Assembly: GCF_011045215.1 (NCBI RefSeq)
Contig: NZ_CP049201.1
Source: Escherichia coli
GTDB lineage: Bacteria; Pseudomonadota; Gammaproteobacteria; Enterobacterales; Enterobacteriaceae
DNA length: 64,000 bases
Strand: one strand, 5' to 3'
Shown: positions 8,883 to 62,076 of the stretch, piece by piece
Layout: each line of letters opens with the position of its first letter
Numbering within the stretch: the first letter of the stretch is position 1
Position numbers and translations under genes: made by a program
The notes under the pieces: generated by a model
Told to the model about the DNA's origin: nothing
The model's input: the letters and a program-made list of their open reading frames with translations, nothing else
Database searches by the model: none

Positions 8883-11800
8883 CTATCCCCAATCCAGCCC
8901 TTGTGGCGAACTTGAAAATCCCGCCTCACGCAGCAGCGTAAACATCGGCGTTTGCCGGACCGGTAGATCATTCACTTCTGTTAGCGTAAAGCGCAGCCGT
9001 GGTTCGCGACGCAGTGCGGTAGTCAGCGCGTGGAAAACCTCTGGGGCGAGTAATTCCTCTTTTTCCTGCCAGACCAGCATTTTTTTGCCACCTTGCGCCA
9101 GATAGAGTAACAATTTGCCGCCAGAAACGACCACCAGCGCACCCGCCCGACGCGTTGGTACCAGCGTTGCCGGATGTGCAGGCCAGGGCAGAAGATTTCC
9201 CCACACATTAGCCGGATCGTTGGCGGAGAGCGCCACTGGTGTATAGTGGCGCGTTTGCGCGGCTTGTGTCGCCAGGTCGCGCAAGCGGTCAATAGTCAGA
9301 CGTTCAGCGAATTGCGCGCCACCCAGACCTTCTACAAAACGACCTCGCATAATTCGCCCGGAGTCTTCCATACTTCGACAAAGCGTTTGCATCGATGGAA
9401 ACCCGCCAGGGATATTTTCGGCTATCACCGCCTGACGACTGATGATGCCGTAGCGGTCGAGCATATTTTCCGCCAGCGCCAGCATCCTTTCGGTATCGTT
9501 TAGTGGCTCCACCTGCAATAACGACCAGCGTCCAGCCAGATTTGGTGTGTTGTAAGATACCCGCGGCGAGACGGGTTGTGCATAGACAGGACGCCCACGA
9601 CGAGCCCGGTGACTGCGGCGAGTTGAGGTGCGTGCGTTGGAACTGCTGCGGGTGAGGGCGCGTAACGGTGCCCAAATATCGCTGGTGATGACGCCTTGCC
9701 AGACCAGCGCCCATAACGCCTCTTGCAGTGCCGAGGGATCAACCGATTCGCCGATTTTGTCGCGTATCCGTTGGCTGATTTGTTGTGCAAACCAGGCTCC
9801 TCCGTCAGCCAGAACAGCGACTATCGCTTGTTGCAGCGCCGAACGATTCGCCTGATCCGCTTCGGCGGGAGTGAACGATTCTGCAGCATATTCCTGTAGA
9901 TGCAGTGCCACCAGGCCGTCATCTTCACCCAGTTTTTTTTGCCCCGACCAGATAACCGCACCGGTTGCCAGTAATTCATCGAGCATTTCTGGCGAATAGT
10001 CGCGTACGCGGGCAGGCAGGATCTGGCTTTCCCAGAGTGAGGCGGGTAAGCCGACTCCGGCAAGCTGTTCGATTACCCGCATCACGCCATCTACGCCCTC
10101 ATAAACGCCTGGCGATGTTGAGGCAAAGAGCGCCGGGCTACCATCGGTGGCGGGTAATACGCCCTGACGTTCCAGCAGCAATCGCGCATAGGTCGTGGCT
10201 GCAACGGGACGCGTCGCTTCTCTGGCGGCTTGCAGCGAGCGCAAACGCAGACGACGAAATACTTCATCGCTCACCCAGATGTCTTGTTGCAGATTCATCA
10301 CCAGACCCTGTTCGCGCAGTTGCTGAAGCTGCTCTTCGACAATGGCAATACCGAGACTAAACTCATGAGCCAGTTGTTCAGCCGTGACCAGAGCATGAGC
10401 CCGGAGATAGCGCAGAAAGAGGTCGCGAAGCGGGTAACTGACTCTATGCAAATAAATCTCTGGCAGAGACTCTGGTAGTTGTACGCCGAGGGCATCGCGC
10501 AGCCTGGCGGCATCATCCATACAGGCAAGACGCTCCTGTCCGCTAATCATCGCCGGGAAGATTCGTTTTACTGTAAGAAGATTTTCCAGATACGACGCAA
10601 TCTCTTCACTGCTGCCTGTATGCCGTTGCGCCAGGTCTTCAACGGTCATTGGCCCCAGTTCGCGCAGCAGGTCGAACAATCCTTCTTCACCTTTCGCTCT
10701 TCTGCCAGGAGCCAGTCGTTGCAACTCTTCTTCCACCTGGCGAATGACCTGCGGGTCGAGTAATTCCCCGGATCGACCTGTCCGAGTAGATTGCGCAGTA
10801 ACTCGCTGTCCAGCGACAGTACGGATGCCCGGCGCTCTGCCAGCGGGGCGTCGCTCTGGTACATAAATTCCGCGACATAGCCGAACAATAAACTTGTGGC
10901 GAAAGGCGAGGGCGTAGTAGTCGTTACATCGGATATTTGAATTTCGCCACCGTTCAGGCGACGCATCAAACGTTCCAGTGCGGGAAGATCATAAACATCT
11001 TGCAGACATTCGCGTAGGGTTTCGAGAATGACCGGAAAATCCGGATATCCCTGAGCGATTTCCAGCAACTGACTGGCGCGCAGCCGTTGTTGCCAGAGCG
11101 GGGTGCGATGGCCCGGCGTGCGGCCCGGCATTAATAACGCCCGCGCGGCGCATTCGCGAAAACGGGCGGCGAAAAGTGCTGAGCTGCCTACCGCCTCGCG
11201 GACAATTTGCAGCAACTTTTCTGGTTCAAACAAAAAAATCGCGGCGTCGGGCAATTTACCATCAGTGTCAGGAATGCGCGCAACAATGCCGTCATCACTG
11301 GCGACCACAGACGCGTCAGCGCCCCATAGCGCATGTATTCGCCCGGCAATCGCCAGCGCCCAGGGTTCATGCACCCGTCTTCCATAGGGAGAGTGCAAAA
11401 TAATACGCCAGTCGCCAATTTCATCACGGCACCGTTCGAGGACCAGATGACGACTCCCCGGAACGATGCCCGTCGCGTTGCGCTGCTCGTCAATCAACCC
11501 CTGAATATTGGCGATCGTATTTTCTTCAGCCAGCCACGGGGGAATAGTCCCGGAAAAGAACGCGCCATCCGCCAGTAAATGAAGAAAATCGCCGATCATC
11601 TCGCCTAATTCAGCCGGACGTCCGTTACCTTCACCACGCCAGAAGGGGAGCCGGGCAGAACGACCCGGAGCAGGAGTCACAATCACCTGATCGCGGGTGA
11701 TTTGCTGTATCCGCCATGAGGTAGCGCCGAGAGTGATAATGTCGTTCACCCGCGACTCATATACCATCTCCTCATCCAGTTCACCCACCCGCCGCGAACC

Positions 11801-57844: not shown

Positions 57845-59146
57845 TCAAGCAGAGGTAAATTGCGGGATGTTATGCCATAACGGCCAGCTAAACGAGAAGC
57901 GGGCACCACCCAGTTCGCTGGTGTCACAATTAACCGTACCGCCCATTGCCAGTGCTATAGAGTGGACAATTGCCAGCCCCAGCCCGCAGCCGCCGGTTGA
58001 GCGATCCCGGCTGGGATCGAGGCGAACAAAAGGTTCAAAGATATGTTCGCGGTTTTCTGGGGCAATCCCTGGGCCATCATCCTCAACAATTAATGTCGCT
58101 CTATTCCCCGACAGTAGCAGGCTGGTTTCAACCGTTGAATGGCAGTAGCGCAGGGCGTTATTGAGCAAATTATCCAGCACACGCTCCATTAAGCGCATAT
58201 CCAACGCCGCATAATGGCCTTGCGCGAGCGTTTTTATCCGTACCGTTTTATCGGGCGTTACTGCCTGAATGTCTGCCAGATGCGTTGACAGCCACAACGG
58301 CAGGTCTGGTTCGCTAAGATGAAGCTCGTTTTGTGGGCGATCGAGTCGGGCATAAGTCAGCAGCTCTTCAATTAAAGCTTCAAGTTGACTGATATCACGA
58401 TTCAACGCCTGGGATTCGGCGGCGCTCAGGTTATCGCTCATCTCCAGTCGATAACGCAGGCGCACTAACGGTGTTCGCAGTTCGTGTGCAATACCGTCAA
58501 TAAGCTGTTTTTTGCTGGCTATCAAGGCGTTGATATTGTCCGCCATCTGGTTAAATGCGACGCCAAGGCGTTCAAAGCTCGAACCCTCATCAAAGTGGAT
58601 ACGTTCATTGAGATGCCCATCGCCAAATCGTTGCGCCGCAGCTTCCAGTTTTAACATATCCTGCCAGTGCGGACGCATCCAGATAAACACCGGAAAGGCG
58701 AGGGAAATGGCAATAAAAGCGATCAGGGCGATATCCAGCAATCGCATCTGATGGAGGTAATAAAGATAAGGAACAGGACCAACTGCCAGCACGTAGTGGC
58801 TGCGCGGGATACGTTGCAAAAACGTGTACTGATCGTCCAGGGCGACAATTTCGCCGCCACGCAGTCGGTGCATGGAAATATCATCAAGATGGTATTTACT
58901 CAGTGGCTCGACACGCAGATCGAAAGAGAGATTTAAATCCATCTCTTTCAGCGTCTTACCCCAGTCGTGTGGGGGGATCTCACGCAATTCGCTGCGCATC
59001 AGATACAGCGAACTGTTCATCAAATCATCCAGCGACTGTTTGCCCGCGCGTTCGGCGGTAAATTTGTACACCAGCCCAACCAGCAGAGACATCACAAGGA
59101 AGCAGACAAACAATAACAGGTAAAACTGGATAAACAATTTTTTCAT
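57845..59146 (-). CDS. rstB: sensor histidine kinase RstB
   Basis: 433-aa frame from ATG at 59146 (MKKLFIQFYLLLFVCFLVMSLL), HAMP/HisKA/HATPase. Confidence 0.95.
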   Translation of the reverse strand: MKKLFIQFYLLLFVCFLVMSLLVGLVYKFTAERAGKQSLDDLMNSSLYLMRSELREIPPHDWGKTLKEMDLNLSFDLRVEPLSKYHLDDISMHRLRGGEIVALDDQYTFLQRIPRSHYVLAVGPVPYLYYLHQMRLLDIALIAFIAISLAFPVFIWMRPHWQDMLKLEAAAQRFGDGHLNERIHFDEGSSFERLGVAFNQMADNINALIASKKQLIDGIAHELRTPLVRLRYRLEMSDNLSAAESQALNRDISQLEALIEELLTYARLDRPQNELHLSEPDLPLWLSTHLADIQAVTPDKTVRIKTLAQGHYAALDMRLMERVLDNLLNNALRYCHSTVETSLLLSGNRATLIVEDDGPGIAPENREHIFEPFVRLDPSRDRSTGGCGLGLAIVHSIALAMGGTVNCDTSELGGARFSFSWPLWHNIPQFTSA

Positions 59147-59176
59147 TGGCATCGCCCGCAACAGAATACTATTCGT

Positions 59177-59205
59177 ATTAATTCACGACTGTGGAGCAAT
59201 GTAAA
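59177..59205 (-). promoter_or_regulatory. candidate sigma70 promoter for rstB (TTTACA-N17-ATTAAT)
   Basis: Minus strand -35 TTTACA (59205-59200), 17-nt spacer, -10 ATTAAT (59182-59177), about 30 nt upstream of rstB ATG; prediction only. Confidence 0.3.
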
Positions 59206-59324
59206 CCGCCAACTGGATAAGGCCTTGTTTGGAAGATAATGTCCGGAACAGACGGATGTATCCCCGGCGTATTCATATTCAGTAAATTCAATTTTCCACC
59301 GGGGCTTGTTTATTATGCTAAGGT

Positions 59325-60668
59325 TTAATTTAACGTGACGCTTTGTTGTTCTTTAGTCTCTCTATCCTTAAGAAGACGGGCTGATATTACACCGGACATC
59401 ATTGAACCATTCACATTAAGCGCTGTTCTTGCCATATCAACGATCGGCTCTATGGCAATAAAAATACCCACTAATGCGACAGGGAAATTAAGTGTTGAAA
59501 GGACAATCAGCGCCGCGAATGTCCCACCACCACCTACGCCTGCTACCCCTATTGAGCCAAGCGCGATGGCAGGTAAAAGAGTAGCGAGGAATTGCAATGA
59601 GAAGGGATCGATACCCATTGTTGGAGCAATTATCGCCACCATCACGGCAGGATAAATCCCAGCGCAGCCATTTTGTCCCATGTTGGAACCAAAAGACGCT
59701 GCAATATTAGCAATCGTATTTGGAACCCCCAATTTTTCCAATGCAGAAATAGCCAGAGGAATTGAAGCCGCACTACTGCGAGAAACAAACGCAAAGGTAA
59801 GTACTTGCCAGACGGTCTTGTAATAGTTAACGGGGTTTTTACCTATTAACAGCAAAATGCCCGAGTGAACAATAAACATCACAAAAACGGCCAGATAACA
59901 GGCGACGATGAACCCGAGCAAATTGGTAAACTGTGAAAGCTGATACGTTGAGAAGACTTTCGCCATTAGTGCCATTACCCCATAAGGCGTCAGCGCAATG
60001 ACAATACGGACCATTTTCATTACCCATATTTGAATCGCGTTGATCCCCGCGCTCAATTTTTCGCCCTCTGCTGGTGCATCTTTCTTTACTTTTAACAGCG
60101 CAATACCAGCAAGAATTGTAAAGATGACGATGCCAATAACCGAAACACTTCTTGCCCCGGTCAGATCAAGGAAGAGGTTGGTTGGGATCAATGACGTAAT
60201 GAGTCGCGGTAAAGATACCGCAGCTGTTTTCGAGACGTCATCGCTGGTTAAAGAGGATTGCATATGACCAAAGGCGCTGGCATCAAGGCCAATTGCACTG
60301 GCAATAGCCAGGCCAACTAAACCTGCAATCATGACTAAACACAACATACAGGCAACAATAGTTAAAGACATCTTGCCAATACCAGCGCTATTTTCGAGCT
60401 TATTAATCGCTGAAAGAATAGAAATGAATATGAGTGGAACGGCAACAAGTTTTAATAAATTAACATAACCGTTACCAGCAATATTATACCATTCGATAAC
60501 GGTTTCACTGTTTGTCTCAGGAATGAAATGCAGGGAGATACCAATGATAGCCCCCAGGAAAATCGCGATAAAAACACTTTTGGAAAGGGATTCGCTCTTT
60601 TGATCCGTTTTGAAAATCCCCCATGAGCAGATCAAAAAAAGCACAATATATGTGAAAGTTGTAACCAT
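59325..60668 (-). CDS. DAACS-family (sodium:dicarboxylate symporter superfamily) transporter, YdjN/TcyP-like; absent from this position in K-12
   Basis: 447-aa polytopic ORF, ATG at 60668 with AGAGG upstream; shares motifs with E. coli YdjN/TcyP as recalled (W(Y/F)NI(A/V)GNGYV, LTFAF(V/T)SRSSAASIPL, FG(S/A)xxGQNGCAG, GVAGVGGG(G/A)TFAALIV); substrate not inferable. Confidence 0.85.
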   Translation of the reverse strand: MVTTFTYIVLFLICSWGIFKTDQKSESLSKSVFIAIFLGAIIGISLHFIPETNSETVIEWYNIAGNGYVNLLKLVAVPLIFISILSAINKLENSAGIGKMSLTIVACMLCLVMIAGLVGLAIASAIGLDASAFGHMQSSLTSDDVSKTAAVSLPRLITSLIPTNLFLDLTGARSVSVIGIVIFTILAGIALLKVKKDAPAEGEKLSAGINAIQIWVMKMVRIVIALTPYGVMALMAKVFSTYQLSQFTNLLGFIVACYLAVFVMFIVHSGILLLIGKNPVNYYKTVWQVLTFAFVSRSSAASIPLAISALEKLGVPNTIANIAASFGSNMGQNGCAGIYPAVMVAIIAPTMGIDPFSLQFLATLLPAIALGSIGVAGVGGGGTFAALIVLSTLNFPVALVGIFIAIEPIVDMARTALNVNGSMMSGVISARLLKDRETKEQQSVTLN

Positions 60669-60722
60669 TTTTTAAGCCTCTTGCCTCATTCAGCACCTGA
60701 AATGCCGGAAAGAGTTTGTTGT

Positions 60723-60747
60723 AAAAAATCTGCGCCATAAGACGCAG
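60723..60747 (-). terminator. hairpin plus U-run between rstA and the inserted transporter gene (rstA terminator or leader attenuator)
   Basis: Minus strand CUGCGUC-UUAU-GGCGCAG followed by AUUUUUU; a TATAAT hexamer (60763-60758) lies just upstream. Confidence 0.45.
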
Positions 60748-60880
60748 GGACGAGGCGATTATAGAGAAATTTTTTCTCATATTCACATCAAATGTAGGGG
60801 GGTTGGAATTTGAATAAGCTCTTATTAATTGAATTCGTTAATTGTTCTCTTTTTCAGATGAACAAATATTAGTCATCTGA

Positions 60881-61612
60881 TTATTTATTGTCACTATCCC
60901 ATGCATGAGGCGCAAAAAGATAGCCTTTGTTACGCACGGTTTTAATGCGATAAGGTTCTGCGGCGTTATCGAGCAGTTTTTTTCTTAACCGCGAAATAGC
61001 CACGTCCACGCTACGATCCAGTCCGTCATAACTGACGCCGCGTAAATTTTTCAGCAATGCATCGCGGTCCATGATTTGCCCGGCATGGGTAGCTAATTCC
61101 CACAATAATTCGAAATCAGCTGTTGAGAGCGAGATTTCAGTGTTAGCCAGGGTGACTACGCGGTTGATAGGATCGATGGTCAACGTGCCGAAATGCAGGG
61201 CTTTGTAGGGAGTCAGAGACGTTTCCTGAAGACCTTTGGTCAGTGTGGCTTGCTCATTCTGACGCAAATGCAAACGTAAACGCGCTAGCAAAACAGCAGG
61301 GGGCGTCGTTTTGAGAATATAGTCGCAGGCACCCATTTCCAGTGCCAGGATGTGGTTCATATCGCTATCGAGAGAGGTTAGAAGAACAATCGGTCCAGAC
61401 CACTTTGCGCGTAAATCACGACAAATGGTCATGCCGTCCTTGCCTGGTAGCATGATGTCGAGTAACACCAAATCCGGATTTTCTCGCAAAATGGTTTCTT
61501 CGGCATGGTCGCCGCGCGGCTCTACGGTAACCTGCATATCATGTTTTGCCAGGTACGCGGCAATCAGTGAACCGACTTCCGCATCATCTTCCACAAATAC
61601 GATAGTGTTCAT
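60881..61612 (-). CDS. rstA: OmpR-family response regulator RstA (C-terminus differs from K-12 as recalled)
   Basis: Frame from ATG at 61612 (MNTIVFVEDDAEVGSLIAAYL), receiver plus winged-helix domains; ends ...APHAWDSDNK. Confidence 0.92.
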   Translation of the reverse strand: MNTIVFVEDDAEVGSLIAAYLAKHDMQVTVEPRGDHAEETILRENPDLVLLDIMLPGKDGMTICRDLRAKWSGPIVLLTSLDSDMNHILALEMGACDYILKTTPPAVLLARLRLHLRQNEQATLTKGLQETSLTPYKALHFGTLTIDPINRVVTLANTEISLSTADFELLWELATHAGQIMDRDALLKNLRGVSYDGLDRSVDVAISRLRKKLLDNAAEPYRIKTVRNKGYLFAPHAWDSDNK

Positions 61613-61658
61613 AACATTCACGGTAGATATAAAAACGTCACAATACACCGCGCTGTTT

Positions 61659-61675
61659 TTACTTACTATCAATCG
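61659..61675 (-). promoter_or_regulatory. putative PhoP box in rstA promoter
   Basis: Minus strand TGTTTA-GAAAC-GATTGA about 50-65 nt upstream of rstA ATG; rstA is PhoP-activated by established knowledge; second half-site is weak. Confidence 0.35.
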
Positions 61676-61740
61676 TTTCTAAACAAGTTTTCATCAGGTA
61701 TTCTACTGATGACTTGTTATGGAAGTGTTAAGGTAAAAAG

Positions 61741-62076
61741 ATGGGGCTGGTAATCAAAGCCGCGCTCGGTGCGCTGGTAGTGCTGTTGATTGGTGTTTTA
61801 GCAAAAACGAAAAATTATTATATCGCCGGGCTGATTCCACTTTTCCCGACCTTTGCGCTTATCGCGCATTATATTGTTGCCAGCGAACGCGGCATTGAAG
61901 CCTTACGCGCAACCATCATTTTTAGTATGTGGTCGATTATTCCCTATTTTGTTTACCTGGTGTCGCTGTGGTATTTCACCGGAATGATGCGCTTGCCCGC
62001 CGCTTTTGTTGGTTCTGTTGCGTGTTGGGGGATAAGCGCATGGGTGTTGATTATATGCTGGATAAAGCTGCATTAA
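61741..62076 (+). CDS. ydgC: GlpM-family inner membrane protein YdgC
   Basis: 111-aa hydrophobic ORF. Confidence 0.88.
   Translation: MGLVIKAALGALVVLLIGVLAKTKNYYIAGLIPLFPTFALIAHYIVASERGIEALRATIIFSMWSIIPYFVYLVSLWYFTGMMRLPAAFVGSVACWGISAWVLIICWIKLH

Follow-up and report, generated by a model that had tools for sequence, protein, structure and literature searches.

We analyzed a stretch of 64,000 nucleotides of Escherichia coli DNA (RefSeq assembly GCF_011045215.1, contig NZ_CP049201.1), hereafter the window, in which a gene for a TcyP-like cation symporter lies between rstA and rstB. RstAB is a PhoP-controlled signaling pair for which two reports describe roles in the responses to acid and in virulence (PMC6824119, PMC13276309). 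We think it likely that an acquired cassette delivered the symporter gene to this site together with its native expression signals, namely a promoter, a hairpin and a leader, and that the effects on RstAB are side effects of that arrival. The sequence comparisons show that the inserted DNA is a cassette, its promoter, hairpin and leader are conserved, and the coupling of rstA to rstB is lost. The locus is an example from nature of a two-component operon split by an accessory gene that has a conserved promoter and leader of its own. A separately controlled gene inside rstAB would alter the production of the kinase relative to the regulator, which would amount to a natural experiment running throughout S. 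flexneri, where the same arrangement is found.

An acquired cassette separates rstA from rstB

Read on the minus strand, the genes of this part of the window are folM, ydgC (on the opposite strand), rstA, an open reading frame (ORF) of 447 amino acids, rstB, tus and fumC. The flanks and the order folM-ydgC-rstA ... rstB-tus-fumC are those of E. coli K-12, and RstA and RstB are 98.7% and 99.5% identical to the E. coli W proteins. The window differs from K-12 in having an extra gene, with a predicted promoter and leader of its own, between rstA and rstB. The rstA coding sequence (60881-61612, minus strand) specifies 243 amino acids ending in ...HAWDSDNK, and the RefSeq annotation of an environmental E. 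coli (L002) has the same arrangement. The rstB coding sequence (57845-59146, minus strand; 433 amino acids) is intact. When the junctions were aligned with the K-12-type sequence, the foreign DNA resolved into a cassette of 1,750 bp (59147-60896, minus strand) that stands in place of ATAAGCG, the K-12 sequence running from the last rstA codon to the rstB ATG. The left junction falls within the last rstA codon and the right junction at the base preceding the rstB ATG. The final 16 nt of rstA (60896-60881) are insert-derived, and RstA ends in HAWDSDNK compared with HAWE in the K-12 type.

The cassette is rare among complete E. coli genomes. It occurs in 5 of 5,426, and in only one of the five is it chromosomal; the other 5,421, like E. 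coli W, have a gap of 3 nt between rstA and rstB and no cassette. The environmental E. coli L002 carries DNA that is 99.3-99.8% identical at the same chromosomal site, and near-identical cassette DNA (99.3-99.8%) is found on plasmids, where it lies between two copies of either IS1 or ISKpn26, both insertion sequences (IS). The IS1-flanked plasmid copies meet IS1 at ...GATGCCA, which is the identical base at which the chromosomal insert ends (9640-9680 in the plasmid locus L003; 59147-59160 in the window). The left ends of the cassette copies are not alike and correspond to window positions 60896, 60841 and 60803. The TAAG of the K-12 spacer survives at the right junction of L002 (7720-7745) but is missing from both the window and S. 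flexneri. The arrangement rstA-transporter-rstB is also present in S. flexneri, with one protein variant of the transporter on at least 1,000 contigs; in strains 301 and 2457T the gene is annotated as a truncated "putative transporter". The exact transporter protein of the window is on record from E. coli. From these comparisons we conclude that the cassette is horizontally acquired DNA that is mobile and is also present at other sites.

We found no donor genome for the cassette, the best chromosomal homologs being at most 85% identical in protein and about 75% identical in DNA. We also considered that the chromosomal cassette might be a composite transposon bounded by insertion sequences and rejected this possibility: the cassette is IS-flanked on plasmids only, and the junction alignment revealed neither an IS element nor a target-site duplication around the chromosomal copy. 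A literature search on the insertion, on STM1368 and SL1344_1302 (two names of the Salmonella homolog described below), and on the locus tags of S. flexneri brought up no study of it.

The cassette gene belongs to a clade of TcyP-like transporters

The gene in the cassette (59325-60668, minus strand) encodes a TcyP-like cation symporter of the SDF family with a length of 447 amino acids, and the alignment with TcyP of E. coli K-12 is full length, with 46% identity over 441 amino acids. Pfam PF00375 is on record for all homologs of the symporter, several sources name relatives L-cystine transporter, and the curated NCBIfam models GltP, DctA and SstT match it only weakly. By homology, the substrate would be of the cystine type. 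TcyP (YdjN), the cystine/sulfocysteine:cation symporter of E. coli, has the same SDF fold, but the window protein falls into a separate clade whose members share at least 69% identity and have a leader of their own, and the region upstream of K-12 tcyP contains no similar promoter or leader. RefSeq starts the gene at a GTG at 60644, giving 439 amino acids, whereas in the alignment all homologs start in line with the ATG at 60668. Pairing with the anti-Shine-Dalgarno (anti-SD) sequence amounts to -5.8 kcal/mol for the ATG compared with -2.2 kcal/mol for the GTG, and a ribosome-binding site, AAGAGG (60682-60677, minus strand), stands before the ATG. We conclude that the transporter most likely starts at the ATG at 60668 and not at the annotated GTG.

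Homologous loci were retrieved by protein similarity (69-85% identity), and they come from Citrobacter, Kluyvera, Salmonella, Shimwellia, Arsenophonus, Apirhabdus and metagenome bins. In Citrobacter (L009, L011, L012 and L018) and Kluyvera (L014, L015 and L020) rstA and rstB are also split, with the transporter homolog directly after rstA as in the window, but unlike the window these loci have an additional 1-3 kb of opposite-strand genes ahead of rstB. The opposite-strand ORFs in the gap encode 346 and 272 amino acids in L018 and 177 and 211 amino acids in L014. In Salmonella Typhimurium the homolog is STM1368 (SL1344_1302 in strain SL1344), whose protein is 77% identical and whose site differs from that of the window: it lies between ydiH/rydB and sufA, with sufA as a divergent neighbor. 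In the other genomes the gene is found elsewhere. STM1368 resembles the window gene in having the TATAAT hexamer, a hairpin in the same position with a U-rich run behind it, and an identical 40-nt leader, and differs from it in the sequence of the hairpin stem. In the supplement to one study STM1368 has an expression pattern of its own, unlike that of sufA (PMC6333337); the searchable literature yielded nothing on its function or regulation. The Salmonella small RNA (sRNA) gene rydB lies just downstream of STM1368 in convergent orientation (L021 6403-6463, minus strand).

The transporter carries a conserved promoter

An initial annotation of this DNA had picked out, on the minus strand, a TATAAT hexamer, a hairpin with a U-run, a ribosome-binding site followed by an ATG, and a TTTACA-N17-ATTAAT arrangement ahead of rstB. 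All of these motifs are present at the coordinates given here. The first three had been offered either as a terminator of rstA or as a promoter with a leader attenuator, and comparison of the homologous loci favors the second of these readings; a terminator that arose to end rstA is not what the comparison indicates.

The TATAAT at 60763-60758 (minus strand) recurs in nearly all homologous loci, which span at least eight genera, the exceptions being two loci with TAGAAT and two with TATACT. Its constancy is independent of the neighboring genes, and the IS-bounded plasmid copies, both those with IS1 and those with ISKpn26, retain it. Promoter and leader are moreover identical and intact in E. 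coli, in Shigella and in the plasmid copies. As a bare hexamer TATAAT is not above chance, with 16 occurrences in the window against 22 ± 5 expected, and terminator-like sites such as the hairpin are not above chance in number either (6 in a 2.9-kb region, compared with 2.8 ± 1.7 expected). Both exceed chance by their conservation across homologous loci. A hexamer that is conserved whatever its neighbors, and that neither kind of IS-bounded plasmid copy has lost, is most readily understood as the -10 box of a promoter belonging to the transporter itself. The predicted start of transcription is near 60751, about 7 nt past the -10 box.

The homologous promoters also share an inverted repeat, approximately CCACAC-TTTTT-GTGTGG, that covers the position of the -35 element (for example, L018 3880-3896). 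The corresponding region of the window (60781-60798, minus strand), which aligns with this repeat and has a weak -35 element inside it, has diverged to CTACATTTGATGTGAAT. The repeat may be a binding site for an activator. The combination of a poor -35 element with a conserved inverted repeat across it suggests that the promoter is probably activator-dependent. RstA itself was considered through its binding site, the RstA box TACATNTNGTTACA (PMC4117788), and was rejected: the site in the transporter promoter has 4 mismatches, and sites with 3 or fewer mismatches are at chance level (44 compared with 42 expected).

A hairpin probably opens the transporter leader

Folding and a terminator scan identified a hairpin, CUGCGUC-UUAU-GGCGCAG, at 60747-60730 on the minus strand (60747-60723 with its U-run). 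It has 7 bp, 5 of them G-C pairs, and a 4-nt loop, and is followed by an A and six U (60729-60723). Its folding energy is -12 kcal/mol (z = -3.5), a value that only 1 of 200 shuffled sequences equals or betters, and it is among the sites returned by the terminator scan. The hairpin starts 11 nt past the conserved -10 box, and in 15 of 20 distinct homologous leaders a hairpin starts 9-11 nt past the box. The stems of these hairpins are unrelated in sequence (CUGCGUC, CCUGAACC, CUAUUAUCC, CCGGUCCC, ACCCACA, CUAAUUGUU and GCUAUC); a U-rich run stands behind most of them, and the folding z-score is negative in 17 of 20. The hairpin is also kept where the upstream gene is divergent, as with sufA in Salmonella.

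Because it lies downstream of the -10 box and is kept beside divergent genes, the hairpin appears to be part of the cargo and not to have been selected to end rstA. Measured against what defines a terminator, it has the shape, a stem-loop with a U-run, but not the position, since it does not stand at the 3' end of an rstA unit. We conclude that it is, by origin, the first element of the transporter's 5' leader, so that hairpin and U-run would form the very beginning of the transporter mRNA. There it could act as a leaky attenuator, as a stabilizer of the 5' end, or as both. Any read-through transcripts from rstA must still cross the hairpin, which may act on them as well. Intrinsic terminators, leader attenuators and 5' stabilizing stem-loops such as the ompA 5' hairpin are the known classes that it most resembles; as in those, a G+C-rich stem-loop with a U-run lies only a few nucleotides from where the 5' end is predicted. 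It differs from these classes in that the transporter leader has neither an upstream antiterminator sequence nor a conserved leader peptide. With a start about 7 nt past the -10 box, there would be no upstream sequence left from which an RNA antiterminator could form.

The initial annotation's other reading, in its strong form, holds that the hairpin is an efficient terminator of rstA and that rstB is transcribed from a new promoter of its own, TTTACA-N17-ATTAAT, leaving the two genes fully uncoupled. The canonical geometry of the hairpin speaks for the first half of this explanation. Set against that geometry are the place of the hairpin downstream of a conserved -10 box, its presence in homologs where no gene stands upstream whose transcription it could end, and the consideration that efficient termination at this point would silence the transporter too. 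Together with what is said below of the rstB promoter, these points make the explanation unlikely in our view.

A near-invariant 40-nt leader includes the ribosome-binding site

Downstream of the hairpin lies a near-invariant 40-nt leader, CTCTTTCCGGCATTTCAGGTGCTGAATGAGGCAAGAGGCT (60675-60714, minus strand), and the ribosome-binding site is part of it. Among 16 loci retrieved through protein similarity, 31 of its columns are invariant; coding DNA in the same loci is 73-77% identical, and a conservation profile shows the contrast between the two. A scan of metagenome contigs with a 24-nt core of the leader returned 18 loci, and in all 18 the match is upstream of a homologous transporter gene. 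The element is absent from the more distant homologs of Plesiomonas and Aeromonas (57-60% identity) and from E. coli tcyP. No leader match was obtained with Rfam 15 at E ≤ 1 over 58800-61800, and a search of five homologous loci at the Rfam gathering scores likewise gave no leader match, returning only rydB (near STM1368) and tRNA.

The leader can be folded as a hairpin, an imperfect one, with CUCUU paired to AAGAG in the ribosome-binding site (60682-60677). Across 11 sequence variants, 98% of the cells of the comparison form pairs in this helix, compared with 40-51% when the partners are slid by 1-3 positions, and one pair covaries from U-A to C-G in two lineages (L016 and L027). The structure is plausible, and if it forms, the leader would sequester the ribosome-binding site and would serve as a translational operator under the control of some factor. 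As a 40-nt element that has no Rfam family, the leader is a testable candidate for a new form of post-transcriptional control of sulfur amino-acid uptake.

Three other candidates in the leader were rejected. An upstream AUG (60689-60687) stands behind AGGUG and opens an ORF of 5 codons that runs to 60672, its stop one codon before the transporter ATG. This AUG is conserved, but the reading frame and stop vary among loci: the frame becomes an in-frame extension in Kluyvera and an out-of-frame overlap in Citrobacter, and in L027 the AUG is absent. This variation argues against a leader-peptide attenuator with a conserved peptide. A CsrA site was dismissed by eye, as the window's leader contains no GGA motif. 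In the minimum-energy fold of the window the U-run pairs with an A-run that precedes the ATG; by inspection, this pairing is not conserved in the homolog sequences examined.

More speculatively, the hairpin with its U-run and the 40-nt leader might together be a previously undescribed regulatory RNA of Enterobacterales TcyP-like transporters, responsive to a metabolite, a protein or an sRNA and gating rstB in this E. coli/S. flexneri lineage. We put this forward tentatively and consider it rather doubtful. If it were true, the level of the RstB kinase would be tied to whatever the leader senses. A related alternative takes the leader for a dedicated sensor, an attenuator combined with a translational switch, controlled by a ligand, a protein or an sRNA and gating rstB through read-through. 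In its favor are the near-invariance of 40 nt against a divergence of about 25% in the coding sequence, the confinement of the element to sites upstream of this transporter family (the 18 metagenome matches among them), its absence from Rfam, and the fact that a terminator-shaped hairpin and a possible helix sequestering the ribosome-binding site share one leader. Several features nevertheless make such a sensor improbable. The order of its parts would be unusual for a riboswitch, with the terminator-like hairpin first and the conserved element second; the conserved element shows nearly no covariation; the Aeromonas and Plesiomonas homologs do without the element; and no ligand or factor is known.

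Our preferred explanation, that the cassette brought the transporter gene with its native promoter, hairpin and leader, has points of its own to answer, and the following weigh against it. The -35 element is GTGAAT (60786-60781), which matches the consensus at 3 of 6 positions with a spacing of 17 nt, and the promoter is absent from the built-in scan. Several of the homologous hairpins are weak, at -6 to -8 kcal/mol with z near -1 and interrupted U-runs. The hairpin of the window, by comparison, looks like a competent terminator, with -12 kcal/mol and six U; if termination there were efficient, the transporter's own transcripts would be stopped too, and a mechanism of antitermination would be required. 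As to the leader, 9 of the 14 pairs in the helix never vary and only 1 covaries, so that the support for the helix comes mostly from invariant pairs, and the invariance of the leader could have an alternative cause in an operator acting at the DNA level.

Expression of rstB downstream of the cassette

The initial annotation had proposed that rstB is no longer translationally coupled to rstA, and this holds. Because the rstB ATG follows the rstA stop after 1,734 nt in the window, compared with 3 nt in K-12-type genomes, we regard the loss of translational coupling, as judged from the gene layout, as certain. The rstB ribosome-binding site is predicted to pair only weakly with the anti-SD sequence in both cases (-4.2 kcal/mol in the K-12 type and -2.9 kcal/mol in the window). 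An in-frame ATG lies two codons upstream of the rstB start, at 59152.

The spacer from the transporter stop to the rstB ATG comprises 178 nt (59147-59324, minus strand), and matching DNA is found only in near-identical copies of the cassette. The only stems in it that come near to a terminator, one of 5 bp at 59253-59241 and one with a long loop at 59304-59262, are not convincing. The promoter that had been proposed for rstB, TTTACA-N17-ATTAAT with TGn (59177-59205, minus strand), is present as an arrangement and is weak, matching at 9 of 12 positions. TTTACA (59205-59200) matches the -35 consensus at 5 of 6 positions and ATTAAT (59182-59177) the -10 consensus at 4 of 6, with TG at -15/-14. 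The extended -10 TG, the 17-nt spacer and the near-complete -35 are what favor a separate rstB promoter, as does the situation in Citrobacter and Kluyvera, in which opposite-strand genes lie between rstA and rstB, so that a self-promoted rstB is viable. On the other side, ATTAAT has a T for the key A at -11 of sigma-70 promoters (position 2 of the -10 element), and the arrangement is absent from the built-in scan. The density of relaxed 9-of-12 promoter matches is 0.76 per kb on each strand, which gives a chance expectation of about 0.13 in a 178-nt spacer. Conservation lends the candidate no support, as the spacer matches near-identical copies only, and the window has no counterpart of GCTAAC-N-TATTGAA-N5-CGGTGA, the conserved motif that precedes rstB in Citrobacter and Kluyvera. 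We regard the rstB promoter as neither supported nor excluded.

As no terminator or promoter in the 178-nt spacer is convincing, we infer that rstB transcripts most likely arise by read-through, both from the transporter promoter and, as a residue, from rstA. The consequences for RstAB would be side effects of the cassette: the tail of RstA is changed, translational coupling is abolished, and transcripts begun at the rstA promoter have to get past the leader hairpin before they reach rstB.

S. flexneri copies of the locus show signs of decay. In S. flexneri L022 (GCA_013474215.1, 5760-6000) the rstA stop has changed from TAA to CAA, which adds 4 amino acids to RstA, and the transporter ATG has become ACG. 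In the M90T strain, rstB appears in the pseudogene list of a supplementary table (PMC7132871 Table S4). Unlike these copies, the window has an intact rstA stop, transporter start and rstB. Decay at all three points hints that the arrangement has consequences. The same decay of S. flexneri copies could be cited, along with the fact that the cassette brought no activator gene, for a last explanation, in which the signals are inert in the host, donor leftovers within a single rstA-transporter-rstB read-through transcript from the PhoP-dependent rstA promoter; but the E. coli, Shigella and plasmid copies all have the same undamaged promoter and leader, and a perfect -10 box with a stable six-U hairpin is unlikely to be wholly silent, which makes this explanation highly improbable.

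Further features of the locus

A second hairpin (UCAGAUGA...UCAUCUGA) lies directly after the rstA stop (60854-60880, minus strand; -9.9 kcal/mol, z = -3.0). It has no U-run on the rstA strand and is not among the sites of the terminator scan. The Citrobacter loci likewise carry a hairpin right behind the rstA stop. At the other end of the cassette, the sequence at 59147-59160 is faintly like the inverted repeat of IS1. A shortened ydgI had the appearance of a pseudogene, which we rejected: the shortened ORF is an artefact of the edge of the window, and the gene is intact when read through. Finally, Citrobacter RstA, which likewise has the transporter downstream, ends in ...HAWDDExRK, a short acidic and basic tail (WDDExRK) comparable to the altered RstA tail of the window (60881-60898). 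The likeness of the two tails suggests a common ancestral junction.

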